NCBI GenBank assembly: GCA_905178155.1
Contig: CAJINV010000002.1
Coordinates: 6,366,476 to 6,430,475 of the forward strand
Reading direction: 5' to 3'
Source: Amoebophrya sp. A120
Lineage: Eukaryota; Protista; Dinoflagellata
DNA: 64,000 nt
Shown: in pieces, positions 3,048-64,000 of the stretch
Layout of the letters: each line of letters begins with the position of its first letter
Numbering within the stretch: position 1 is the first letter of the stretch
The notes under the pieces: model-generated
Told to the model about the DNA's origin: nothing
Database searches by the model: none
The model's input: only the letters and a program-made list of their open reading frames with translations
Made by a program: the position numbers and the translations under genes

Positions 3048-5650
3048 ATGGCTTCCTGGATCCGGCATCTTTTCAAGGGAAAACCGGCGCACATCAAGCA
3101 TGCAGCTGCAAGAACGACCTCGTCCGGTAATTATACCAATACTCAGAATTTCAATTTGCCGCGGTCCTATGCTCCGCTGATACGGTCGGCCGACCTGCCC
3201 GCTTTCATCGAGGCGCTCTCTAGGCGGCACCCCGACAAGACGGAAATCAGCAAGAGGCTGAAGATGATTGCCAACAACCGGGAGCTGAAGCTGAACGACC
3301 CGGGGTTTCCACTGTTCGAAGTGCGACACTTTTTTTATGACAGTGCACAACTCCTTCTCCCCCTCATTTGTATAGCATGAACGGCAATACAAGCATTAGG
3401 AGGAAGAGTGCCGGTTTTGCATGACAAATTTCCAGTGGAGCGTAGTGCTATTTGGGCCACCAGAACTTGTCATGCAAATAGTGCCAAGAGGCACAGCCTG
3501 GATTTGGATTTTTACATGACAAATGAGGGGAAGGGGGAGTTGTGTACTCTCACACTTTCCAGGCGGAAAAGGCGACGTTGGTCCTGAACCAGTTCGACGA
3601 TCTATTGTCGCCGCCGCACGGCGGCGCGTATTGGCTGGATAAGGAGGTTCGGAGATTATGCCTAGAGAGAAAACAACATGAAGTACAAGAGAACACAGAA
3701 CAACTCGACATTCCAGATCTGAGGTTTGACCTCCACGACAGCAGCTGGCCTCTGAACAAGGCCAGACATGAAATAAAAAACGATTTTTCACCGGTTCATT
3801 GCAACCTGTACTTCTCTCCAGTGGGGCAAGACCACCCTGCCTTCCGGTTCCACTACGACCCGTGGGACCTGGTAATCCTACAGCAAGAGGGCGAAAAGAC
3901 GTGGGAAATTGGAATGAACGGGTTGTATGACCCCAGCAGAATATTTGTATCACCTCCGTCGCATCAGGGGCGGCACAAGGGCAACGGAAACACGACCTCG
4001 GATCAGGAGAAAACCAGTCGAGAAATTCCCGATGGGCACCCTTGCTTGGAAAAAGTGACAAAAATCACCCTGCGTCCCGGGGACCTCCTGTACCTCCCGA
4101 ACGCAACGCCACACCGAGCGGTCTGTGAAGGTGGAGGTGGAGAACAAAGTACTAGTAAAAGAACGGCAAGCACAGCCGCAGTCGGCTCGCTGCACCTCAC
4201 GTTTGGCATCGAGAACAGCACGCGGTCGGTTGCCTACCTGATCCAGCAACTCGCGGTGTGTGATATTTTCGCAAAGCACGAAGAAAGTGCAATGCAAGCG
4301 GAGACGGAGTTTGATCTGCGGAACGTAGATCTCGTTGACGGAAATAGATCTTCTGCTGCTGGAACTAATTCCATTCCGAGCCTCTATACGGCTGTTTCCT
4401 CTCAGAGCTTCCTGAAAGCACTCGCCCATTTGAGAGCTGCGGTGGGAGATAATGATGGGAAGGAAAGCAAAATCAGCCTGAGCCACACCTTTGTTCGCGA
4501 CCTGCCGAAGCCGGCTTTTGTTGGCGACAGGGTCGGCGGGTTTCATGCTCCCGCAGAGAGCAATGATGATAGAAAAAGCGAGCGGAGTATAGTCGGAGGC
4601 GGTATTTCGAACGAAAGTGGTGGACTCGATTTTGATGCTGTCCTCTCGGACGGAACCATTGCATTTGCGCAGCTCAGATCTCTGATACTGGCGCAGCGGC
4701 AAGAGCTGCTTGTGGCAACTGCCAGTGGCAGCGGAGAGCAGGAGGAAGAATCTTCACAGAGCTCAATTTCAACAACTGAATCTACTTCTAAAAGCCCTGC
4801 CAACTACAGTTCTCCCCCTGTTTCGCCGCTCCGGCTGCTGGCCGAACAGGTGAAGTTTATTCAGAAAGATAGTAGTATTTCCACCTCACGGAAATTGACG
4901 GGATTGACGACCACACGGAAAAAACTGGAGGCCGGGATTGTAGTGGAACATCAAATGAAAATGAATGGAAATCACGACACGATTTCCGAAACAGCTCAGT
5001 CTCAACTACAGCAAGTCCTACAGCACGCATTGAACACACTGGACAACCCCCAGCAGCTCTCCAAGTCGCTGGGCGCGTTGGCGTACGTCGAGGCGAATAC
5101 CTTTCCGGGTCATTTTGCGGAAGCACATTTTAAGGAGGTAGACGAGATGTTATATGATTTTCGTGAAGAAACCACTGCTACTACTTCCACCGAAGAACAG
5201 ACAAGCAGCTTCTTCGATTTTTCCTTTCTCAGCGACCCGGACCCGGTGTTTAGCTCGAACACGGAGCACGCGAACGTCTTCCTCCTGACCGACCAGGCGA
5301 CGCAATCCCGGGGCGAAACTGTGGGCTTCCTCTTTGTGCGCGGACAGCGGATTCCGGTGCCGAACGCCGAAAAGCTGATCCCTGGGTTGAAGTGGTGCTT
5401 GGGTAGTTCTTCTTGTGGTGTTGCGGAAGAAGTAAAAGTAGAAGTAGATCATGCTATTGATAGTCCCGCAGCGGTGAATGGTGGTAAAAGAACGAGAAGC
5501 AGTGACATTTTTTCATCACGTTATTTTCGTGCGTCAGAAGCGCAAGAGAAGGGCTTCCTGGACAGTGTCGGATTCGCGCTGTCGCTCGGCCTGCTCAAGC
5601 ACGTGAGAGAAAAAAATGCAGAACAGCGCTCGAGGCGCAGGTATTTTTAG
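3048..5650 (+). CDS. JmjC/cupin 2-oxoglutarate oxygenase (ROXA/NO66/RIOX-like), at least 2 exons
   Basis: Motifs HYDPWDLVILQQEGEKTWEI (HxD), LRPGDLLYLPNATPHRA and SLHLTFGI. ORFs 3048 and 3542 join in frame (VRHFFQAEK) after removing the element at 3336-3554. The 5' end may extend upstream. Confidence 0.8.
3336..3554. mobile_element. Introner, family C
   Basis: TIR tatgacagtgcacaactcc / ggagttgtgtactctcaca; degenerate direct repeat (DR) ttttt/ctttc; removal restores the JmjC frame. Confidence 0.8.
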
Positions 5651-15281: not shown

Positions 15282-18200
15282 ATGCCGCGTGAATCAAGCG
15301 CGCATCGCGCTACGTCTAAGCGGATCAACGCACTGTATGCGGTTCGCTGGCTGTACTCCCGCACGGGGCTAAAAATCTTCTTCCTCGTTCACCTGGCTGT
15401 CCGCCTGTTTGCGCGAAAAACGGAGGAGAAACGCACGAGCACGGAACAACACCAAATTACGACGAACCAGTTGGAGATGAAGACCGAACAAACTACAGAG
15501 GAAATGCGCCGCACCGGGGCTTCAAGACAGGAAAGCAAGACTGGAGCGGGGCTGCGGAAGCGGAAAAGAAGATTGGTCGTGCGAAAGCGAAAAAGAAAAA
15601 AAGCAGCCGATGACGATGCCGATGATGCTCTTGACTTTATGCAGCATTTGGCGCATTTGCATGATATGTCGCTGCACCCTCACGACGAATATCTCGACCC
15701 CGACCTCGGGAATCGTGATGACGACGACTTCGAACATGGTTCTTTTTGGACGAAGAGTCTAGCGGAGATTGATGACGAAACGCCACCCACGTGGAAAAGC
15801 AAATACGGGCGACCGTCTGATTGGGCTTTTACTGACGGGGTCAGCCAGCGCGACATCATCGCTTTCGCGGAAATCAAAATGGAAGATGAAGAAGGCAACG
15901 TAGTGAATGATGGTGATTGGCCAATTACTATCAACTGCAAATATGTCTAGGTCTGCAAGAGTGCAAGACTTGTAATGCTGAACTCACATCATCATCCCAA
16001 GGCCAAACTCTGTAATGCGTGTTGCGGAAGGGCGGTGTTTGTTCTGTGTCATGCAAAAACGTCGCCTGGTCGCATGCGTCTTCCGCACCACAAGACCGTT
16101 CAAAAATGTGTCATGCTCGGTTGTGTACTCTAGTCATTTCTTCATTCTTGTAGTAGCATGACAAGTTTGAGTTTCCAGTTCCAGACATATTTGCATGTGA
16201 TAATTACGAAAGAGGAATGGGAGGCCGTAGGCGGAAGAGACGAGCAGTGGGCCTGGCTCTGCTGGACAAACCCCCATGCGCCGGGGGAAGACGCTGATTG
16301 TGACGAAATAAAAGAATATTCATGGCAAATATTTTGTCTGGGTCGGGAAATAAGTTGTGAGGCTTGTCTGTGAATAAATAAGTGTTGTGCTGCCGCGCAT
16401 GACTGGTTTTTGCGCGGTGGCTATGTGTTGCCTTTTTCGCATGAGAAACTGCGTGTAGTTTGCATTACATACAAATAGAGTGGAGTTGTCGGCGGGGGAG
16501 CATGCATTACAGCAGTGCAGAGTCATGCCGCGCAAGCATGACACGTCTCGCCTTCTTCCGGACCCAGGCATAAGTATTTGCATTTGATAAAGAAGAGGAT
16601 TGGAACCTGCACCCAAATCCGGGTGCAGACACAGACGGTCCGCATACAGATATTCTGCGTAAAAACGCTCCCACACAATATTTGTCATGCGAGTCTGCAT
16701 GCCCCGAATGTCTCTCATGCGCAGTATGTAATTTGTATGTAAGGCGTTGGGTTACCAGAGCCGATCCACATAACAACAGCAGTCCGCCGAGGAGCATTTT
16801 CTGAGGGTTTTTTTAAAGTAGTCACTCTCGAATCAGGATCATGTTGCAACGCGGCTTTTATAGCCAAGCATGACTACACTGACTACATTGTCCGAAAAAT
16901 TCGGCAGCCTACGGAGTTCACAAAGCTTCTTGATTTGTCCAGCAGATTAATGCGCCAGCATGACTATGGGATGCTGGGGACGTTTTCACACAGGATACGG
17001 AAGCCGTGTGGGTGGCAATGGTCTGCAGCAAATTCCGCCACGTCAATCGCAGCCTTGTCATCGCCAAAATGGGCAGCTGAAGATGCTCAAAGCTCTGACA
17101 TAGCCGTTGACGAAAAGTACACGGCCCTGGGTTTGAGCGATAACGAGAACCGGTTTCTGCAATTACTCGACGGAAAACAGAAGGGGACTCGGTTACCGAG
17201 TCGGATGTTTCCAGCCTTTGCGGCGGTGAACATGTGCCCTGGCCGCACCTGCCCCGCCGCGCTTTCGATGTGGATCTGGCGAGCTTTCAATTGTGCGCCC
17301 AACACTACGGCATTCACCTCGACGACGGCGACGATCGATTGTTCAAAATTTTGACCAGGCACACGGACGTGGGCGAAGTCGTATCCATCAACGGGGAAAA
17401 AAAGGTCTCGGGCAGCACGGTTAGCACCGACGTGATGAGCAATGCGCAAGAGCAGGACTGGTCGCTCCAGGCTATGACGCAGTGGGCGCAACATAACCTT
17501 GACGAAGGCAGCAATAACGGCGAGGGCGATCCTGTTGACACGCCTGTTGTACGTCAGTTGTCCATAACTGACAATAACGTAGAGGCCACGGGAGTGACCT
17601 CTACCAACCCGCAGGGACACATCGAGGAGGTCTCCTACGATCTGGATGGCGACGACGGCTCAAGCACCCCCGACGAGCAGGCTCTCGAAAAACTGATGAC
17701 GACGGCTGGCGGGCAGCACTTGACGCTGACCGAGCTGCTCGCCATGTGTGAGGGCCAGCTGGACTCTGGTGCGCTGACCGCAGGCGGTTTCAAAGACTGT
17801 GCTGCGGATCCCGATAACGGCGGGGGTACGCAGCTGACGGATGATCGGCTTTGGCACGTGATCGCGGGCCAGTTTGATACCGACGGAGACGGTAGAGTCA
17901 CATCAGCGGACGGAAGAGCGGAGGGCAGCACTACGACGGTTTCCATCGCTGACATCAAAAACTCCGCACTGCAGTACGACGACCTCCATGACGAGTCGAT
18001 CTCTCATAGCGGCTCGAAGCACGTCGACGCGGACAAACTGAGAGACATCGCTGACCGGCTGGCGGCGCGCAACGGGGACGGGAGTGCCAGTGGCAGCAGC
18101 GGCGGCGAGGGAGGTGGAGCGGAAAGTGGTGAAGGCCAGGCGGTGGGGTCGACGATCACGAAAAACCAGTGGGTGCACACGCTGGGCCGCAAGGGTTCCG

Positions 18201-21200
18201 ATTTCGACTTGCTGGCCAAGCAAGGCAATGGTGGCGGAGGAAGTGCTGACCACATCCTCGATCAGAACGACATCTCGTCGATCGCAAACGATCAGGATGG
18301 ACATGACATCATCTCGGATGGGAAAAACTTTCACACCGTCAGTAGCGAGTTTCTTGATTTCCAGAGCGGAGGCCTGGGCGCAGGGGATAAGGCGATGCTG
18401 GAGGGAATGTTTGGAAAAGGAACCGGGGGCAACACACTGACCGTTGACGGCATCTTGAGTTTTTGTGGCGATGGAATGGGGCAGCTCACGCAGGACACCC
18501 TCCGCGGTTGCGCGAATACGAACGGATTTCGGTTGGCCGACGATGGAGCCGGGCTGTTTGATTTGTTGCAAAAGGCCTTGGATACGACGCCGGGAGATGA
18601 CAGCATTCAGCGGGGGAGTACGGAAGCCTACAGCCTGGAGGCCCTCCAGCAGTTTTCCGATCAGCTGTCTACGAACGACGCGGAGACGGGCCCCGGCGAC
18701 ATCCTGACCGATGTTACGACGGAAAGCGCCACCGGTGCAGAGAGGGTGGTCGACCCCGACAAAATGGAGGACATCGCAAACACATTGGGGGACGGCGAGT
18801 CCCCAATCACCCAGAATGAGTGGGTTCTCGCGGGACACGGGTCTCCTGCGGACTTTAAGAAGCTAGCGGAAGGGGGCAGCGACCCGAATCTCATTGAGGG
18901 TAGAGCGGAGCTCACCGGTCACGAGATTTTCACTGTCAACGGCGAGGACCACACGTTGCAAAAAGAGGAAGTCTCGTACGATCTGGATGGCGAAGACGGC
19001 TCAAGCACCCCCGACGAGCAGGCCCTCGAAAAACTGATGACGACGGAGGACGGGCGCCCGAAGAAGCACTTGACGCTGACCGAGCTGCTCGCCATGTGTG
19101 AGGGCCAGCTGGACTCTGGTGCGCTGACCGCAGACGGTTTCAAAGACTGTGCTGCGGATCCCGATAACGGCGGGGGTACGCAGCTGACGGATGATCGGCT
19201 TTGGCACGTGATCGCGGGCCAGTTTGATACCGACGGAGACGGTCGAGTCACATCAGCGGACGGAAGAGCGGAGGGTAGCACTACGACGGTTTCCATCGCT
19301 GACATCAAAAACTCCGCACTGCAGTACGACGACCTCCATGATGAGTCGATCTCTCGTAGCGGCTCGAAGCACGTCGACGCCGACAAACTGAGAGACATCG
19401 CTGACCGGCTGGCGCCCGGCGGGGAGAGTGGCAGCGGCAGTAGCGGCGGCGAGGGAGGTGGAGCAGAAAGTGGTGAAGGCGAGGCAGTGGGTGGATCGAC
19501 GATCACGAAAAGCCAGTGGGTGCACACGCTGGGCCGCAAGGGGTCGGATTTCGACTTGCTTGCCCAGCAGGGTCAACATGGTAGTGGGGATGATGACCGC
19601 GTGATCGATCCCGGTGACTACGCGACTTCGGCGGCGGCAGCAGACGGGGGCGACACGACCACGCCTGTTGACAACGTAGTCCGAAATAACGGCAACTTGC
19701 AGGAGATCGATAGCCAGGTCGCAAATGCGAAGTTTCCAGGGTCCGACGGCGACGAGGATCTTGGAAGTGGGGGAAAGCTGCTGTTGCAGCAGATGTTTCT
19801 CGATGATGGCGAGGCGGGAGCGGGCAGCAAGAAGTTGACCGTGGCTGGCATCTATCACACCGAAAGTTACCACTTTGGCATGTGTCAACATCTAGTGCAA
19901 CATCAAACAAGACGATCTATCGTGTGTTTTTTGTTCGACCGATATAAGAGAGAGAGTTCTTCTCATTTTTAACAAATTATTACATACTGGATGGTGCAGA
20001 TCGACGAAGCTGTAACTTTGTTCTCTGTGATATCGTCGTTAGTGTATGCGAGTTGACAGCGGGCGACCCGATCACTGCGGCTGTGCTGAGTGACTGTGCA
20101 GAGAGCAAAGGCATCAACTTGTCTGACGCGGACCGCGATAAGCTATTCCAGCTGCTCAGTCACGCTCTGGATTCGACTCCCAAGGAAGACGGAGGGAGCA
20201 CGAGCATCGAATCTGCAGCGGACGAAAACACTGCGGCCTACGACCTGACAAGCTTGCAGCACTTTGCTAGCAGCGAACACGACAACAGCATCAACGTCCT
20301 GGATGCTGTCGTCAAGAACGATGGATCCGGGCGAGAAAATGTTGTTGACCCTGGGCAAGTTAGCAAGCTCGCGGGCTCAGTTGGGGACGGAAAATTCCCA
20401 ATCACCGAAAATGAATGGCGCTTCGCAGGGGGTGGCAGCCACGAGGATTTTGTCACGCTGAGCGGCGGCGAGGACGGCGAAATTACGGAGTCGGACGTTC
20501 CGGTCGCGGGCACGGCAGGTGCCGGCTCGGAAATAGTTTCCAGTGGCGGCAAATTGCGCGAAATCAGCACCGGCGACGTCGACTTTGACAAGGCGGATCT
20601 GGATTCGGACGATAAATTGATGCTGCAGCAGTTTGTGGGCGAAGACGGCAAGGTGGACTGGAGCTTAATCACTGGCTGGTGTCGGGACCAGCTGCCGCTG
20701 ACGGACGCAAGTCTCAAGAGGTGTGCGGAGAACATTAGCTTTCACCTGTCTGATGACTCTCAGTTGTTCAAGGTGCTCAGCGCCGCATTTGACACCACGC
20801 CCGGCGACACGGAGATCAACACCACGCCCGTGGACTACGACGTGATGGCGCACGTCGACGCGGATGGGGACAAGGTGGTGGAGCCGGGGGAAGTCGACAA
20901 GGTTGCCAAGGCACTGGGGGACGGGCACTTCCCGATTACCAGACAGGAATGGGTTGACGCGGGACACGGAAATCCGGCTGATTTCGACCTCATTGCGCGC
21001 CAAGGTGGGGGCAATGACGACGAAATTACGGCATCGGACATTCCCGCTGACCCGGGTGCGGCAGCGGGGGCTGACGCCGGTGACGCTTCTGCCGCTTCCT
21101 CGGGTGCGAGCGTACTGGTCGTGAACCACGGCAAGCTGCAGGAGGTCGATGGCGAAGATGTGCTGACCGGGGAAGGTCCGCACGAGAGGTCGGAAGTGTC

Positions 21201-32900: not shown

Positions 32901-35900
32901 GTGCACCAGCCGAAAAGGTTTTGCGTTTTTTACGAGGAGGCAATACCAGGAGCCCGAAAGGAAAGAATATCCCTCGTGCCGATAAAACAAAACCCACCTT
33001 TGGAGGCGCAGACGAACAGCGGAGTAAAAGATCCTGCTGACCCGTTTACTTTCTCAACATCCTCCTCCGGATCATCGGATTTGTACAGCGTGAATTTGCA
33101 GTATTTCTTCCTCTCCTTGAAGATGCTGAGGGAAAACCACGAACCCTTCTTCAGTCTGGATCCGGCCGACCCCACCGATTTGATGGGGAAACTGCAGAAA
33201 AAGCGTTTCCACCCCGAGTGGCTGGCGGACACGCTGATGGGCGAGGTTTTGTTCCAGGCCGATTACTTCCTGAAACAGTTCTCTTTCGGCGAAATCACGA
33301 ACAGCAGCACTGCCAGTGCGGAGCAGCGGAAGCACAGCTACAAAATTCCGCTCCTGCCACCGGAGCTCTTTAAGGGCAGTCCCGTCCTGAAGAGCAGAGA
33401 AATGGGAGGAACCGGAATAACAATAAACAAGAAGAGCGGAAACAATAATAGAGAAGATCCCCAGATGAAGCTGCAAGAAGATGTGAACGCCGAGGCTGCC
33501 AGCTCATCGTCCTCTACTGCGAGTCGCCAGTGGTTCGTGCTAGACGAGGCACAAGTCGTGCAGGTCGCGCGCCCAGAGGAGATCACCGAGGAAGAGGCGG
33601 AAAATATGCTGAAAGAAGCATCGAAAAGAACCAAAGAACTCTATCGAGAAAGCAACGCAGCGAATAAAACGAAGGACATATCCTAAGTAAAAATGTCCCC
33701 ACACCAGAGTCAAGATGGGAAATCCGCTAGACAAATCAGCCACTTTTGGTTGTTTCGCATGACAAGTCTGTCCTCGTATTGTAATCCTGTTTAGCTAGTT
33801 CCGAAGCATCACAGATCCAGTTTATCATGCTGATTTGAGCATAACAAATCTCACAAAACCACTAGAAAACGCTTCCGATGGGGCTCCGCATGAGAAACAA
33901 TTTCAGCAAGCAGATTTGTATTGCAACTATGGGGTGGGGACGTTTTTACATTGGATAGAACCAAGAACCTTCCGCTTCCTCCGGCTTCCTCCTCGTGCCG
34001 CGGGTGCGACTGCGCGTGGAGGCGCGACGGCTGACGCGAGACCCGGAGACCAATACGTACAAGGATGCGAAGTTCACGTCTTCGAAGGACCCGGCGGTGC
34101 TGCAGGCGAAGTTTTTCACGGAAAAGTTTCCGCAGATTGCGGCGAAGGTGCCGGTATCCTGTGCAAAAGTATCGTACTCGTATAAATGCAAGTCTTGCAT
34201 TGCAAATCTTTTTATGATAGCAAATCCGCATGACAAATTCCATTTCTCATGCTAAGGAAATTTGTATTGCAATAGCAATTTATACTAGTAGGTACGATAC
34301 TTTTGCACTTCATAGCCGGTCGTGGCGGAGTTGATCGAGGTGGCCCGGGCCCTGACGCTGGCGAAGTGGATTCTGGAGAAGAAATATGAGAGTGCACAAC
34401 TCCCCCTCCCCCTCATTTGTGTTGCATGAACAGCAACACAAGCGCTGGCAAAGATGCAGCTTTTGCATCACAAATTCTGAGAGGACTGTGGTGCTGTTTT
34501 GGATTCCAGAATTTGTCATGCAAACAGTGTTAACAGGCAAGGGGTGGATTGGGAATTTTGCATGACAAATGAGGGGGAGGGGGAGTTGTGCACTCTCATA
34601 AGAAAGAATTTCAAATCGTAAACGGCGAAAAGCTGGACCTGCTCGCGCCGCAGCGGGTGTCGACGCGGATGAAATTTCCGAAAAGTGTCGTTGTGGAGGG
34701 CAGTGCTGGTTCTTTTGTCTCGGCGGGCGGAGTTGTCGGGAGGGACGAGAACATGATGAAGTTGAAGCCTGGGAGGTCCACCTTTTCGACGCGAAACAGT
34801 AAGGGAAATCAGGCGAGGAACAAGACTAAGGCTCTGCAAGACGTCGACCGGCTCTACCTGCACAGAGAGCATGAAAAATCAAATTCTGGCGCTTTCGAAG
34901 GAAGACGTGTGGCGAACACGGTGAGAAACGATAGCTTGGTGTTCGAGGACGAAGAAGATCAGACAGGTCCACCTGAAAAAGTAACAGCCCCGGAAGATTT
35001 TGCCCTTGGACGAAAAGCAAGGAACGGCGAATCCGAGGAACAGCGACCTCCTCCTGGGGAAAAAAACAACAAGTCTGCTGCTGTGATCAGCCGAGAAAGT
35101 TTGCAACTGTTGAAAGCTACCGATCATTTGTCTAGGCCAGGAGAACAAGAACCAGTGGCGGCTGTGTCTAATAGAAGTTGTACTCAACCAGCAGGAGTGC
35201 TGGAGCAAGTCCAGGGAGATCTTTCCAAAGACGGTAGTATCATCTTCCCTCCGCCCCAGCAGCAGCGTCTATCCGCAGACCAGAGGACCGTCAATCCACC
35301 TAGCACCCCGGGCGCGGGCTCGACCACCGCTACCAACCAGGACGATGGGGGGAATACCACCAACCTGGAAGACGGAGGAGCGACCTACGAAGGCGCGACT
35401 AGCGGCACCGAGTCCACCGTGAGCGGAGTTGTCCATCATCCCAGCAGCTGCTCAACGAATGCGGATATCATGAACAAAATCAACAGCATCACAACCAACG
35501 ACTTTCGCGTCCCGCATTCTGACAATTCAGCGGCTTGTCCCTCGGCAAACAGAAGTCGAAACAAGAAATCCTCGTCCCCCACCTCAAGAAGTAGGAGAAA
35601 AGCCGCTGTTGAGAAAAAAGCGGCTTTATCCCCCGCCCGCGCGGAAATAAACAACGAGTTCCGACCCGCGACCACCATGAGTGCCGGATCCTCGAGTATC
35701 CATTCAAATAGCTCCTCAGCGCCGCAGCTACCCCCCCGGACCCTGGGCTTCACGGCGGAGAGTATGGCCAATTTGGTTTTGGGGGCGGACAGAGGAGGTG
35801 TAACAACAACGGGTGTCAACGTGACACCAGGAGGAATACTTGCGTCACCATCCTCAAATGCAATGAATTCCTCCCCTCGGAGGCGACGCGAAACGATCAG

Positions 35901-51900: not shown

Positions 51901-54825
51901 CCCGAACCACCCACTTTCGATCCTCAACGAACGCGAATTCCTGAAACTGCTGGAGCAGGTGGTGTCTGGTGGCGGGGGGAATGCGAATGATAATTCTAGC
52001 GGTTCTTTCGCACCAGCATCAGCAGGAGCTGCTGCCAGCAGTACAACGACCATCTCTATCGAGGAAGAGGAGCTTTTGTTGGGAAGATTTAAAACCATCG
52101 CCGCCAGCGAAGCTTCGCTGGCCCCCGTCCACAACCCGGGGGTGACTCTGGAGGAGTTCGCGGACATAATGTTGTGGTTTGTCGCGTACAAAGCGGAAGT
52201 AGCCGAGAAGAAGGCGCTGTTCTTGAAGAAACGGGGTGGGTCCTCTCTGACGCGGGACGACCTTCTAGCGTCGGGGGTTCATTTTCCCAGCGCGTCGTTC
52301 CCAAGTACTGCCGACGGGGGGAAAAGCAGTGTTGACAGGAAGATGGTCGATCGGGCACTGTTGGTTGGCTCATCTGGCGATGTTGAGACGAATGCGGCGA
52401 TCGACGGCTTTGTGGCCTTTCCAGGGACATTACCCGCGGGGGCAACCCCACCCCGCGCGGAGGGCGAAGCTGCGCTGCCGGTTATTTCGGAGGGGGAAGC
52501 TGCGCCGGCCATTGCGGAAGGCGAAGATATTACCGGAGGCAGGATGAATCGCTTCCCGGTGATTCCCATCAATGAGGGGATGTCACTCCACAGCTCCGTG
52601 CATTCCGCCATGCCTTCGGAATACCCCTCGCACGCCATGGGGGCCGGCGGGAAGGAGTCCGACGACGAGGTTCCGGAGGATCTGCGTCACCTCCCCTACG
52701 CGCTGCAGCAGCGGGCGCTGAAGCAGCGCGCCGCTTGGATGATCTTGGTGGGCGTGGTGTCGATCACGATCTTTGCGGAGGGGTATCCAAGAAGAAAACA
52801 TTGTAGGTGTAACTTTTTTGGGGGAACAGCATTACAAATTTGTCTGGCATGACAGCAAAAACCTGTCATGCGCAGATAGTACGTGAAAACGCCCTTTAAT
52901 GGGCCCTGCGATGCATGCCAAGCATGACAAGGTGCAATCATCTTGCATGTTGAGCATCACAAATTTACACTAACAACGTTTTTTTCATCTTGGATAAGGG
53001 GGCGACGGAGATGATTGTGTACACGGGCGACTTGTTGCGCGTTCCCACCTTCGCCGTCGCCTTCTTTCTCGGCTATCAAGGAACAAAAGTGTGTAAGTGT
53101 AACTTTCTTGGAGGAACAGCATGACAAATTTGCTCTGCATGACAGAGCTAACCTCTCATGCGTAGCTAGCACGTGAAAACCAAAACACTTACGAGAAGAA
53201 CCCCTAATGCGTGTCCAGCATGACAAGTGTAGGCGTCTTGCATCCTGTGCAACACAAAACTTTCACTTTCACTTTACACTATCGCAGTTTTTTTCTTGCA
53301 TATCGGCCCGCTGGCGACCAATGCGGGGGAGTTTTTCGCCGCCGTGCAGATTGGGAAGCTGAAAACCGAGGTGTCCACCAGCGTTTCGGTTTGTTCCTTG
53401 CTGGGCGCGGCGGTGTTCAACAACACTTTGGTTCTCGCGGTCTTGTACTTCCTGTGCTGGCGCCAGGGGCTCATGTTTTGCTTCCTCTCCCAAACCTGCT
53501 GCCTGCTCGTGTGCACCTGGGGGGTGAGCCTCCTGTTACTGGTCTTCTCCGTTAACGGCGCCGTGCGGGAAGACGGAGATAACATTGCTGAAGCGCCCAC
53601 GACCTCCAAAGTAGATGCTGACAGAAGTGCAAGCAGTACTACGGCAAACACGACCGGGACGACGAGACGCTCCCCGCGGGCGCAGCTGCCAGCGTCGGAA
53701 AACAAAAGTCCGGCGGCTTCTCCCGACACGCCTGCGCGGGACCTCCAGTTATCCGCCAGGGCGTTCTACGATCCGGCGTCGATGAAGGAGGGCCACAGTG
53801 CGAAGTTGGAAGCGGCGGAGAAGGAAAAGAAAGACTTGTGGTGGCAAGAGCACGTGATCATCAAGACCCCTGCCGCGTACACGATTTTCTGCATCTTTTT
53901 GCTCTCGTTCTGCACCTACCTCGTCTGCCACAGGTACGTTTTCCCCTGGGAGGCGGTGTGGTCCAAGGGCTACAACTTTTTTCCCAACAGCAAAAAACTG
54001 AAAGAAATGCTGAAAAAAGAAGAAAAAGGCATGAAAAGATTCCAAGAAGATGAGAGCGGCCGGAACGACGCACGTCGACGCCAGAGGTCGGGAGCGGCAG
54101 CGAACGCGGACTTAATGGGTGCTCACGATCCTGCAGGAGCGTTTCTGGAAGGACAAGAAAACCTCCTTCGTCCACTTCCAGCAGAACAAGATACGACGAA
54201 CATCTTTTCGTTCTTTGAACAGGCGCAGACGATGCTGAAGAGCGTTTTCAGTTCGAATGGTGAGTTAGATCTACAATTACCGGACGAGTGGCAGGACAAG
54301 AAACCTTTGGACGCCGTCGAGGTCAGCACGGGAACTGATTCAAAATTTCCTGCTCACGGAGATCAATTAGAAGCAACCCGAGTACTTTCTGCCTCGCCAA
54401 GCTTTGCAAGTAGCTCCAGTCGTGGAATCATGGGAGGCCACGAAGGTACTAGAACAAGCATGACCTACTTCGACCAGATGCAGCACAATTTGATTGCTGA
54501 GCCGCTGCTGTACTTGTTCCTCGCTTTGGTCGCGTTGACAGTGATGGCACTGCCGGTGGCGATTTACTACTGGAAGTCAGGACCAAAAGTGGAGGTTTGT
54601 GTCACCGCAAAGAACTTCAGGATAGACGAGAGTTCTAACGACACCGGATCAGTAACAAACACGACTAGCGGTAGTTCTAGTTCAATGTCCACTACTAGTC
54701 CAAGATCCGCACCATCACGAGACATGACGGCTGGGCTGGAAACTAAGAAGGAGACAAAATCCAGTGGGGACGCGAATTATGCCGGGAAGAAGTTGGCAAG
54801 TAGTGTTGGGAGCTTGGCAACTTGA
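48924..54825 (+). CDS. Na+/Ca2+ exchanger-like (NCL/EFCAX-type CaCA superfamily) membrane protein, multi-exon
   Basis: Alpha-1 region SDGAELL...GSIVLPLLGAFPDALFVLFSG and alpha-2 region PLATNAGEF...GAAVFNNTL; EF-hand-like remnants (VTLEEFADIM). Junction at 50.53-50.71 kb unresolved. Confidence 0.85.
49486..49747. mobile_element. Family A element inside canonical GT-AG intron 49470-49799
   Basis: Perfect DR ggtct; flanking exons join VK|ELKPD via GT-AG. Confidence 0.88.
51096..51375. mobile_element. Introner, family E
   Basis: DR cacca; join SFTNESH. Confidence 0.92.
51435..51756. mobile_element. Introner, family B
   Basis: DR gtcaa; join RRSSMIDN. Confidence 0.92.
52784..52996. mobile_element. 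Introner, family D
   Basis: DR agggg; join FAEGATEM. Confidence 0.88.
53074..53302. mobile_element. Introner, family D
   Basis: DR tcggc; join FFLGPLATN. Confidence 0.9.
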
Positions 54826-55187
54826 TAAAGATAGTAGTACTAATACGAAATAAAACAAAAATTGATCTAGAAAGTAGCCGATTTTATCATATTTCACACT
54901 ATTGTTCTATGCTATTCATGGATATTGCAAAAGATGACCTACTATGTTCTTGAGAGAAGGGATTTTCTTGAATGCCGTGTGCGTTGCTTGGCTGTCCTTT
55001 CAGAGCTTTAGTTTTGTTTATCGAGTGTAGAAGAATTCTCTTCAGAGACAGGTTGTGAAAACTGCCGGAATTCTGTGCCCGATTCTCGTAATTCATTCAT
55101 TACCACGGAAAAACTAAAACAGTCACTGAATTATTTTGTACCGATAAAACAAAAACTGTACATACAAATGAACAATAAGAGCTCGCG

Positions 55188-56467
55188 TTAGGGAGGAAAA
55201 CCGGGCGGAACGTGGTGAATCTTTAAAATTTTTCGCGCCTTCTCATCCGCCCCGGGCCCATCCTCATTCTGGCCCCCCTCCTTTCCGAGCTGGCTACTTG
55301 CCCCTCAGATATTACAGGGCGGGCATAGTACTCTTTGCGCCGCCTCCCTTCGTCCCCCTCCCCTTCAGCAGGCGGGGCGCCCATCCTAGGAACGGCCGAG
55401 TGCAACTCCGCGGCCCGGCTTTTTTGTCCCTATGGAGGCGGCATGCACCGCGAACGCAGCGCCGGGGCGCAAGTTATGCCGCAGCCCCCAAAGCAGCACG
55501 CCACAAAATGCCTGGAATGGCCGCCCGGCCTTCCGCGCCAGTAACCGTGGGGTGGCGGGCGCGCGCAAATTCATGGGCGGCCCCCGGGGCAAGGAGCCCC
55601 AAGGGCTCGGCAGCCGTTGGCCGTGTGCCAAGGGGGCAGGCCGCCGCGCAGAAAATACCATCGTGGGCGGCCCCCATAGATGCTTGCATTGCGCGGGGCC
55701 TCCGGAGGGCCCGATGGCGGCCGGGCCGCGGAGGACTCCCGAAGGGCCCCGATCGGGGTCATTTCTGGGGCCCAATATTTTTCCCAGATTTTTCCCAGAT
55801 TTGAACCCGATGCGGCCAGATTTACAGCGGTACGACGTCAAAGATTTTCGCCAGATTTTGCCCAGATTCGCCCCCCGGATGGGGTCGAATCTGGGGCCCG
55901 ATCTGGGCGAAATCTGGACGCCGGACATTTTCGCAAGATTTGGCCCCGACGCGGCCAGATTTACAGCGGTGCGACGTCAAAGATTTGCGCCAGATTTGCC
56001 CCGGGCCCGGGGCCAACACACTCCGGCGAACCCATGTCGGGTTCGCAGGCTGGCCCGCGCTGCGCCCCCCGGGCCAATCTGTGAGTATTCGGCTTCGGCG
56101 ACGACTTGGCCGCCCCAACTCAAGGAAGCTCGCGCGAGCGGACACGCGAAATGGTTTGTCGCTCTCTCCCGCCGAGCCCGCCCCAGACCGCTCGGCCCTT
56201 TCCTCCGCTTCCAAATGAAGTAGTTGCCTGTGGGGCCCGGCGACGAGGAGGCCAGACCGGTGCCCCCCATTCATTCGCCACCGCCCCCCTGCGCCCCCTA
56301 TTACGGATCACGCGCGCCGTCAGAAAGCAAGGGCGCAGGGCGCACACGGTGTGATGCTGTGAAGCCCCGCATACTGTAAGAGCTTGCGCGGCCTGTTCGG
56401 CCGGCCGAATGAGAATTCCAGAAAAATTTTAAAGATTCACCACGTTCCGCCCGGTTTTCCTCCCTAA
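55188..56467. mobile_element. Intergenic non-autonomous TIR element, 1280 bp, 47-bp perfect TIRs, 5-bp TSD
   Basis: ttagggaggaaaaccgggcggaacgtggtgaatctttaaaatttttc (55188-55234) and its exact reverse complement (56421-56467); tcgcg on both sides; GC-rich interior. Confidence 0.88.
55806..55997 (+). repeat. Internal 53-bp direct repeat pair and multiple CCAGATT motifs
   Basis: 55806-55858 vs 55945-55997 nearly identical. Confidence 0.8.
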
Positions 56468-57171
56468 TCGCGCTCCCTACCGCTAATTGGTAACGGCAGG
56501 ACTGATGGCTCGCAAATTTTTTACAGGTCTGTAGCGGACTGTGCCTTCGTGTCTGGTGTCTATCGCTTTTCAAGCTCCAATGAATTTCTGGGTGGACGAA
56601 CATATTAGAAACGAAGGGACGAGCACGAGAGTGATTCAGTACAGAGAATGTACTATGAAGAGCGAGAGGACGCGAGCGATCAGTGAGAGAGACCAGTTCT
56701 TGAGCGCACGAACAAAAGTGACAATGAAAAGATGCTTTTGACGAGTGACAAGCAAACGAGAATAGCGAGAAAATATTTTGTTGTTGCGCAGACTTAGTGC
56801 GTTTTTTCGTCTTGAGGCAGCTGAGTTTGTCGTAGCTTATTTTCTCGTGTGAAGACAAATGACTTTCAGTTTCAAACCGAGACTCAAACTTCTGCAGCAT
56901 CGAGGAAAAATTATGGAAGCTTCGCGTCCTCGAATCAGACTCAGCCTGTGTATTCATTTTCCCATCCCCATACACCTGGAGCACGGCAACCCTCGTGCAG
57001 TTTGAATTCACTTACCCCGTTGCATTTGCATGCACATAACAACTCAATCACCGCTTTAGAAGAGAAAGAGAAGGAGGAAAACACCTGCACGTACGAAAAG
57101 TTGCATTTGAGCTTCGGGACAAGGACGGCCATGTTCACTCGCCGAAGCATCGAAGCAAGAGCAGCGAGATA

Positions 57172-60100
57172 ATGACGCAACCGCCCGGAGGAGGGGAGGA
57201 CGGCGGCGGGGGCGGGTCGAGCTTCTCGGGAGGACCGCTCACAGGAGCGTCCGCCGCCTCGTCGTCCTCGAGAGTTACGATAAACAGGACGGATCACGAT
57301 AGAGACGACTACGGCTTGAGAATTATGACGACTGGTTGCAGCAGCAGCAGCAGTCCTGGTAGAAGTGCTACTTCCTCCTCCGGCGCTTCTCATCGCAGAA
57401 GACGCGACCTTGTTTTCGGGCGGAAGAACAAAAGACCACCGACCCCGACAACATCTCGTCCAAATGCCTCTGCACTGTCGCCTTCATCCGGAACAACAGT
57501 TTTGCAACAAAATTTAGCGACCATTCATCCCAGGTGGAGAAAAACCTCACAACAGAAAACTAGTACAATAATGTCCTCGTCTGCCAAGGTGAAGCGGAAA
57601 CGGCGGCGCTTACTGGCAGTAAATCCATTATTTCGCCGACCCACTACAGCCGGCGCGTTTTTTCTTCTCGGCGCTGCTACGTCTGGTGGAGTGTATGGTT
57701 TAGATGAGAAGATGGCGAGATGGCTGGAGGATAACATCGCAACGCCGGTCTTGAATGGCGAAAAGAACGGAGACATCATTTCACCAGAGGAATTTGAAAA
57801 GAGACGAAGACTGCAAGATGAAAAAAGCGGCGATAATCTTCCGAGTACGGGCTTACTCGCATCAACTTCATCGTCATCGAAAGCGGCCAGTAGGATGTTT
57901 CGCGCCGGCGATGCAGTAGATGAACAAGATGCGGAGGAAGAAGAGCTCGAGAGGCACCAATTCCTTCCCCTCGGTATGGCTCCGGACACCCCGCCCGACC
58001 GGGTCGCTGACGCCAGGCGCTATTTAGTCATGGAAGCGGAGCGGGAGCGCACCGGTTGGAAATACGCGGAAGAGTGGAGCAAGTACAGTGGGAAGGAAAG
58101 AACGAAGGCATTGTCATCATCATTTTCGAGGACGTCCTCGCGAGCCTTAGCAGCGACCGATGATGAACATCAAATAAACGCCGAGAAGAACAACGTGATG
58201 AAACACGCCTACGGTCACTCCGCCGTGACGAAAAACGTGCAATTTTTCACCGAATCCGACCAGTGGAAGCCAGATTCGCTGCACAACCGCGCGGTGCATG
58301 CGCAGCAGCGGAATTTGCTGCACGCAGACAACCCAAACTTTCCCAAAGCGCTGACACGGGGGGAAAAACCAATGATAATAACGCCAACCACGGACTACGA
58401 GCGACTGGTTCAACACGAACAGGGCAAGAAAAAGCCGTCCAAATTTTTCCTGCACGATCACAGCGAGAAGTCGGTGGGCGCCCGGAAACTGAGGAAATTG
58501 GCGGAGCAGAGGCATCGGGAACATTTATCTTCCGTCGACAACTACTTGACGAAAGAGGATCCGAAACTGGTCAGCTTGTGGGAAAAGAAAAAGAGCAACT
58601 ACAATCCATTCACGGCGGAGGAGAGCCATTTGAGGAGAACGTCGGAGTTGGAGGCACAGTCCGTTCGGAAGAACTCCGAGCACCAGGTTGATGATCCTTG
58701 CGCAGGAGCAGCAGAGAGGGAGCAACAAGTAGATTTCGAATCCGACAAGCTCCTCCTGGATAAAAAGCACGCGGATCAGCATGCAAGGAAAAGGTTAAGG
58801 CAATTAAAAGCGTCAACCGCTTTCCTGGAAGGGGGGTACAAGGCGGTGGAAGAAGACCTGCAGTCGCTCCCGCTCGACGAGCAGGCGAATTTCCGGGCGA
58901 ACCTGCAGGAGTTGGAGGACATAGCGGAGGAGTTGGAAGAGAATAACGTGCTGCACGAGATCTCTGACAACGACGGCGAGCACAACTTCGAATCCGTTGG
59001 TCTAAACGGGAAGAACGAGCTGTCCGTCATCGAAAACAGCGAGGAGGAGCAGAAGATGCAGATTGTCCGGGATCTCCGCCGAGCTCTCAAGGACCAAAGA
59101 GCGGGCATGAAAGTAGTGGACGTCGTGGCGAGGTTGCGGAAAAAACACGAAAACCGGAGGAGAAGAAGGCTAGAGGAGATAGAGCAGAACCAAATTTTGA
59201 AAATTAATGCCGGGGACAAAAATAAATCGTCGAATGCTGGGATGAAGTGCAGTGCAGAAGGCAGCAAAGGAGCAAGCAGTTTGTCTGCAGAGAAGGACCA
59301 CATCCGCAACCTAGTGGCCGCGGCCAAGGACGCCGACTTGGCGCAGCAAGATGAATTCCACAAAAGGTCTCTCTCCTCGCACGTCACCGGCACCTTCTTT
59401 GTCGTCCAACCACGAGCGATCGCTGGGTTTTACGACGGGAGAGACGAGTATTGCAAGCAGTGGACGGAATCCCCGCCGGTCGTTTCCCGGCTGAATCCCC
59501 AGTTCCCCCGCGACGGGACGGGCATTATGGAGCAGCAGAACAAGGCGTGCGGCGTCGGCATCATCAACTACTTTTTCACCATATCAAATGCAAAAATGTC
59601 TGGGTCTGGAAACTTGTGATGCTAAAAGTGGATGATAGCCGGACTGCAATAGGCAGCAAAGCATGACAAATTTTTGAGCTGCTATGTGTTGCGTATTCCG
59701 CATGAGAAACTGCCTAGGGCCAAGACGACACCGTGAGGACGACCACAGGGGTCCGTCTCAATGAAATGAAAATGACAGATAGGAGATGCTTTTCGTGCTC
59801 ATGCATCACAGATTCTCGAGTCATGTCAGACATGCATGACAAATGTAAGAATCTTCCAGACCCAGACATTTTTGCATTTGATACACCACGTCGGACGTCG
59901 ATACCTACGCGTCGAACCCCTCGATCCAGCAAGTTGTCTCCATCACGTTAAAGTGGGCCACGTTCGTGATATCCGAGACGTGTGAGAACCTGCTCGACGC
60001 GTCTGGTGGATTGGCCATTGCCTCCTGCCGCTTCCAGGCGAACGAGGCAAAGTTCTTCTTGTCGCAGGGCTTGAAGAAGAACACGGCTTACACCCTCGCC

Positions 60101-63100: not shown

Positions 63101-64000
63101 AACGGGATTTTCTTCTTCTACGACAGCGCCGCCACGGTTGCGATCGACACGAAGATCTCCCTAAGGCTGAACAACCCGAACGTGGCGGTCAACATGTTCT
63201 GGCTGGCGTATTCCTACCAGTACATGAACGGAATTATGCGGGCGCCGTTCACCATGGAATTAGACAAGCCGATCGCGTATCAACTGCAAATATGTCTGGG
63301 TCTGGAAAAGTTGGAATCTGTATTGCGTGTTTTGCACTCCTGTAAAATCTGCATTGCGTGACCGACAAAAGCGGGAATACTTTGTCATGCAAAAACGTAG
63401 TTTCTCATGCGCATTTCACATGAGGAAGCGTCCTGAAAATTTGTCATGCTTGGCTGCGCTCAGGAGTACGCTCAGTCATCGCAACTTAGCATCACAAGTT
63501 TCCAGACCCAGACATATATGCAATGCATATCGCGACGCAGGGGTACGGCAGTGGGGACGTGATCTCCACGACCTCCTTGGCGGTCAACGAAAAGAACAAG
63601 GTGACGCTGCTCTTCCGCCCGGGAAATACGGTGATTCCGATGTCCTCGGTTTTAATTTCAGGCTATCTCGTGATACTGCCGCCGACCGGCTTCCAAGTGG
63701 ATAGGACGGGTACGGGATTTTTTATTGTTTCATTTGCTGGAATTACAATTATGAATTAGAATTGTCGTCTTTGTTGTATGTAGTGAGGTCACCGAACGGT
63801 TCTAACCGGGGAGTTTTTTTGCCATCCAGCCAGCAAAACGCCCGGCAGTTTCCAAGCGGCCGGAGGGCTTTTTGCACAAAAAAAAATTTCAATTATCAAG
63901 CGGCTCTGGCTATGTCGGCACCGAATCGCCAGCGGATTCTATCGATCGCCGCTTGGTAAAACGACGCAGAGAAGCCAGCAAAAGGGGCGCCCTTCTGAGG
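57172..64000 (+). CDS. Large secreted/surface-type protein (RRL motifs, charged region, then beta-rich domains); 3' partial
   Basis: ORFs 57172, 59966, 62669 and 63523 join via introners 59582, 60672 and 63278 and canonical intron 60312-60510; probable further GT intron from about 63710. Confidence 0.72.
59582..59883. mobile_element. Introner, family A-like
   Basis: DR cacca; join YFFTTSDVD. Confidence 0.9.
60672..62660. mobile_element. Family E introner carrying a 1.7-kb nested insertion
   Basis: Family E halves 60672-60756 and 62455-62660; DR cacaa; join QPQPLQFIK. Confidence 0.87.
60757..62454 (-). mobile_element. Nested insertion, probable decayed retroelement fragment
   Basis: Flanked by duplicated gcatgac; minus-strand C2H2-like remnant near 62155-62260; A17 tract at 61721-61737. 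Confidence 0.55.
63278..63529. mobile_element. Introner, family A-like
   Basis: DR tcgcg; join KPIATQGY. Confidence 0.9.

Follow-up and report, generated by a model that had tools for sequence, protein, structure and literature searches.

An intergenic element in the genome of Amoebophrya sp. A120 is best explained, with a probability of about 0.6, as a gene-less transposon bounded by terminal inverted repeats (TIRs) that is likely non-autonomous and moved by cut-and-paste and that has related copies elsewhere in the contigs of a public sequencing run. The element, TTAGGGAGG...CCTCCCTAA, spans 1280 bp at positions 55188-56467 of the window, the whole stretch of 64,000 nucleotides that was analysed, and TCGCG is found on either side of it. 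It combines TIRs, a flanking target site duplication (TSD; one insertion) and dispersed copies with the same boundary, and this copy has no transposase gene, as is the case for non-autonomous TIR transposons. With MITEs and other non-autonomous TIR elements it shares the TIRs, the TSD, the lack of coding capacity, the internal repeats and the hairpins, but a typical MITE is shorter and present in far more copies. The upstream open reading frame (ORF) stops at 54825 and the downstream ORF opens at 57040, both on the + strand. The window holds one copy of the element, and the TIR pattern matched only its own two ends. The features are listed in Table 1.

Table 1. Coordinates of the element, its parts and its flanking repeats in the window
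Feature	Position	Strand	Basis
Inferred TSD, left copy, 5-bp direct repeat TCGCG	55183..55187	+	sequence read; chance 0.14%
Left TIR, begins TTAGG; perfect over 47 bp, 91% over 65 bp (to 55252)	55188..55234	+	arm comparison; foreign flank of another copy joins at 55188
GC-rich interior without coding signal, about 87% collinear with the second subfamily	55235..56420	.	contig alignment, ORF searches
Stretch unaligned in sibling copies (93 bp)	55640..55732	.	contig alignment
Degenerate tandem duplication with units spaced by 126-139 bp; contains the 76-bp repeat and the CCAGATT cluster	55747..56002	+	repeat analysis
Central imperfect palindrome, predicted hairpin	55850..55919	.	folding
108-bp block, equal in length but diverged in siblings	56011..56118	.	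contig alignment
Right TIR, 47 bp perfect, element terminates CCTAA	56421..56467	-	arm comparison; diverged X7 contig also terminates CCTAA
TCGCG, right copy	56468..56472	+	sequence read

The first-pass annotation had described an intergenic element of 1.28 kb with perfect TIRs of 47 bp, TTA...TAA ends and a 5-bp TSD. When the two arms were compared, they were identical over exactly 47 bp and, when extended to 65 bp, had 91% complementarity. The outer boundary was seen at a second locus, where in one sibling contig 131 foreign letters with the end ...GCACTTC immediately precede the position that corresponds to 55188. Since this foreign flank stops exactly there, TTA...TAA is the true end of the element, and the arms and the second boundary together confirmed the description of the element, its TIRs and its ends. 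The exact TCGCG on both sides is probably a TSD; an exact 5-bp direct repeat flanks a random span of 1280 bp at 0.14% of the window positions. The length of 5 bp was read at a single insertion, the 55188-56467 copy, and a second TSD was not read. From the perfect arms and the perfect flanking repeat we infer that the insertion was fairly recent. A transposase encoded elsewhere would bind the TTAGG ends and move the element in trans, and cut-and-paste with a 5-bp staggered cut would lead to the 5-bp duplication, the usual mechanism of TIR elements. The seven bases next to the right TCGCG (56473-56479), CTCCCTA, repeat the element's own end. The chance of such a copy was 8% in a loose test and 0.45% in a tighter test that was chosen afterwards, and the copy could reflect an insertion beside end-like sites or an older end.

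Other copies were found in the contigs of public sequencing runs. In run X1, exact contigs covered this copy and both flanks at a depth of 42-46, and diverged contigs matched 55197-55484 (87%), 55802-56010 (90%) and 56119-56459 (86%) at a depth of 74-80. With the 80% setting, a middle contig had a depth of 64.5 and left 55640-55732 unaligned. The diverged contigs represent a second subfamily that is collinear from 55197 to 56459 at 86-90% identity, with 106 differences in 838 aligned bases. They stop at the TIRs and do not extend into the flanks of this copy. In run X7, which is one sample with X1, a diverged contig terminates CCTAA, and the outer T or A was present at 4 of the 4 readable ends. 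At least one further locus of the element family exists. The second subfamily has about twice the single-copy depth, which likely corresponds to two more copies and about three in total, contig depth being no copy number. The sibling copies could also come from a different organism within the sample of X1 and X7.

The depth of the arms was then considered. The single 47-bp unit had a depth of about 79 for the two arms of this copy, and the sibling pieces had 43, 42 and 111. These pieces fit four further ends in a model that is exactly determined, so that this is one consistent solution and no proof. If the account is right, the siblings have the same changes in their left and right arms, which points to a homogenization between the two arms of a copy. 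A 48-bp piece at 55784-55831 that is exact in both subfamilies had an X1 depth of about 160, against about 110-125 expected, and the excess may be noise or may reflect one more copy of the CCAGATT core.

Run X8 contributed two short contigs at depth 2, which are uninformative on the habitat. The TIR pattern had 0 matches in viral contigs, and the element had no match in phages and plasmids. The one match in metagenome contigs (L001) was rejected as a 19-mer shared by chance, the rest being dissimilar. The TIR motif was absent from the portions at hand of the supplements of PMC12130899 and PMC7789003, which are tables and not necessarily sequences. No earlier description of the family was found in the literature searched, and it may be present, without a name, in the repeat libraries from the genome project.

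That the element has no transposase-like ORF had been noted at first sight and was borne out. The Pfam search with 7 of 7 element ORFs gave zero matches, and the longest ORF (263 aa, + strand) had no relative among 1.84 billion representatives. One ORF of the - strand gave 0 matches to longer proteins, which is weak evidence; the frames other than these two were compared with Pfam only. Between the subfamilies, the substitutions were distributed over the three frames as 14, 13 and 13 (40 listed of 126), and since they are even across the frames there is no coding pattern. The small number of indels between the subfamilies (2 events per 106 substitutions) was considered as a sign of coding constraint and rejected, because introner pairs give 55 per 984 and the figure is therefore unremarkable. 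No transposase families were found among the 28 ORFs of the window. In the sibling contigs, no TIR followed by foreign inner sequence was seen among the records that passed the filter, and a coding partner may still exist. No autonomous partner was found in the window or in the filtered contigs of the public runs. Two other ORFs of the window were recorded separately. A JmjC-domain ORF at 3527-5647 encodes a protein with 100% identity to one that is labelled Amoebophrya sp. A120 in its sources; among the scored candidates, this record of the protein itself was the only one at E <= 0.001. A 942-codon ORF contains a direct repeat of 300 bp (17715-18014 and 19065-19364) with 98% identity.

The interior is very GC-rich, as first described, with 64% GC for the element compared to 51% for the window and 70-72% in parts of the element. 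The motif CCAGATT occurs nine times in the interior, seven times on the + strand and twice on the - strand, and any 7-mer of this frequency was found in only 2 of 200 shuffles. The repeated CCAGATT motifs of the first-pass annotation are thus present, in both orientations. The 53-bp internal repeat was also present, but it is imperfect (48/53 identical) and belongs to a longer repeat of 76 bp at 55788-55863 and 55927-56002, with 87% identity and a distance of 139 bp. Folding predicted a central hairpin, with z = -4.3 for 55735-56020. In 20 of 20 shuffles the fold was less stable than that of the interior from 55253 to 56252 (z = -5.1), which has many short palindromes. When the element was searched against Rfam, only 2 miRNA hairpin matches far below the gathering score were obtained, and a tRNA search found none.

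The ends of the element were compared with those of the published Amoebophrya introners. According to section 11 of PMC7789003, the A120 repeats begin with TAT, seven variable bases and then three or more A's, and those of the sister strain A25 begin with TTA and two purines and end in G. The element begins TTAGG, i.e. TTA followed by two purines, which is the A25 type. In the window, TTA-R-R follows 0.5% of the T's, and among the 14 TTA...TAA pairs listed there, this element is the one in which the arms match well and the 5-bp repeat is exact. The match to A25 covers five bases and is with a text description, so that it is a lead and no proof of membership; the element probably belongs to the TTA-ended lineage of the A25 introners. 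As described in the available part of PMC7789003, these have the same start, a flanking direct repeat of 3-5 nt and no transposase gene, and they are from the same genus. However, the average non-canonical intron of A25 is 120 nt, about one tenth of the element's length, and, again by text description, the A25 introner motifs have 8-20 nt compared to the perfect arms of 47 bp. Unlike the A25 introners, the element is located in a genome labelled A120, between coding sequences and in few copies.

The first-pass annotation had taken the element for a recently active, non-autonomous relative of the introners in the window. A fairly recent non-autonomous TIR element is consistent with our results, whereas kinship with the A120 introners was supported neither by the end profile nor by shared sequence. 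The window is dense in TIR elements of 160-323 bp. Its TAT...ATA introners comprise at least five families with 24 elements of 160-323 bp between 7633 and 63529, and same-family pairs have 74-84% identity and few indels. The element at 34385-34600 is introner-like, with TAT ends, perfect 25-bp arms, an AGAAA duplication and a low GC-run pattern unlike the others, and it is without the A-run at positions 11-14 that is common to the other introner families.

An unbiased scan, in which no terminal sequence was required, yielded 31 pairs of inverted repeats that are flanked by a repeat of at least 3 bp. An exact 5-bp repeat was present in 17 of these 31 pairs, and 16 of the 17 begin with TAT, the sole exception being the 55188-56467 element. 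An end profile was then made from 24 elements, consisting of 3 from the unbiased scan and the 21 that remained of 25 TAT-selected candidates after 4 internal or weak pairs had been removed. Because the candidates were selected for TAT, its presence at all 48 profile ends is partly built in. On this profile the end of the element scored -13.5, compared to an introner median of 17.8.

That the element is a long relative of the A120 TAT introners, without its own enzyme and moved by the same one, is unlikely. It shares the 5-bp duplication, exact in 19 of the 24 window introners, and the terminal T...A, as had been noted, and its G-N-AAAA run is shifted by one base relative to the introner consensus. 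However, the terminal two bases are TT and not TA, and the start is therefore different from TAT. The profile score was reached by 27% of random T-starting sites without gaps and by 9% with one gap, and the gapped test does not firmly reject a kinship with the TAT ends. In addition, blastn of the element against the 24 introners gave nothing below E 0.27, and its GC content of 64% is above their 33-50%. The A120 introner end TAT-N7-AAA is missing from the element, and the 5-bp direct repeat is present. The A120 TAT introners, including family 38 (PMC12130899), resemble the element in the 5-bp duplication, the terminal T...A, TIRs of tens of bases and the same genome, but differ in their TA ends, in a lower GC content and, for the 24 in the window, in having no sequence in common with it. 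In the available table of PMC12130899, no row among the 58 for A120 combines a length of 1.28 kb with a TIR of 47 or 65 bp, many of these rows being without a length and all of them without a sequence. It is true that tcgcg recurs at 63278, where it is the duplication of the introner 63278-63529, but this carries no weight, as a match among 24 introners is expected at about 5%. The link to A120's own introners is weak. Since the ends differ from those of the A120 introners and yet match the A25 type, a separate enzyme likely moves the element.

Less probable still is a hAT5-like element with 5-bp duplications. From its second base, the TIR may resemble the end of maize Ac, but at every readable end the element starts one base outside this hAT-like motif, a start at 55189 gives no direct repeat, and the short repeats are central and not subterminal. 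A hAT5 group with 5-bp TSDs exists (PMC12730594), a TSD length that the element shares, and one A120 introner family has hAT5/hAT6 terminus matches in the portion at hand of the PMC12130899 table. A TA duplication with 44-bp TIRs had been offered as an alternative by the first-pass annotation; as an insertion of the Tc1/mariner type into a TTAA context, it is improbable. There is TA on both sides (55189-55190 and 56465-56466), and a TTAA preference would account for the outer T or A at all four readable ends, but the exact TCGCG would be left to chance (0.14%), which is about 700:1 against it, and the site is not palindromic around TTAA. It is very improbable that the ends were borrowed from the host telomere repeat. 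The element begins with TTAGGG, but this is one unit only, and the published A120 telomere is TTTAGGG/TTTGGGG in the part of PMC7789003 concerned. The telomere-like unit that had been pointed out is present but not significant; the window contains 14 instances of TTAGGG or its complement. PIF/Harbinger elements make a 3-bp TWA direct duplication, and this reading fails because TTA and TAA are inverted and not direct copies.

For the transposon preferred here, the odds are about even that the mover is an integrase-like DDE enzyme, as the T...A ends, the 5-bp duplication and, by analogy, a published A120 introner family would suggest. This is family 38, which in the available text of PMC12130899 has a 5-bp TSD, TA/TA ends and integrase-like homology to ORFs of LTR elements and was likened to Ginger. 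In the parts of PMC10045372 and PMC6839031 at hand, IS3EU/GingerRoot has TA..TA ends and 6-bp TSDs, IS481EU has TNT..AYA ends, and Ginger and Ginger2 have TG..CA ends. With IS3EU/GingerRoot, Ginger2 and IS481EU the element shares the TIRs, the T...A terminal bases and a duplication of about 4-6 bp, but this copy encodes no transposase. Its ends are TT..AA and not the TA..TA of IS3EU/GingerRoot, and its TSD has 5 bp and not 6 bp. It is also without the TG..CA ends of Ginger2/TDD, whose TSD of 4-5 bp would fit. Taken together, the TT..AA ends with a 5-bp duplication fit none of the integrase-like groups (TA..TA, TG..CA, TNT..AYA) exactly. No transposase was reported for A120 in the consulted part of PMC7789003, where the authors argued against a general transposase-mediated movement.

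The surroundings of the element were also covered by X3 contigs, for which an RNA origin is a guess. They cover 54700-55186 and 57068-57250 and show no joint across the element, which is located outside both neighbouring coding sequences; that the element is uncovered is no evidence of silence. A 923-nt X3 contig stops at 55186, inside the left TCGCG, without a loose end, as seen in one run only, and this may mark the 3' end of the upstream gene. The spacing to a poly(A) signal was considered as a cause of this stop but found no support in the available part of PMC2488372.

Amoebophrya introners occur in tens of thousands, and their end types have been called strain-specific in the relevant text of PMC7789003. 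It is doubtful, though conceivable, that the TTA-ended lineage which made the introners of A25 is still moving in A120 at low copy, either as an ancestral lineage or passed between parasites, and that the siblings or a longer relative encode a transposase that was missed and whose TT...AA and 5-bp signature is outside the named superfamilies. As it stands, the element is one more gene-less transposon family, ordinary in kind and useful as a lead, and its long clean TIRs and about three copies make it a good bait for the coding partner. The presence of A25-type ends on an apparently recent A120 element would show that one genome contains both types of end, with only one of them forming introns there.
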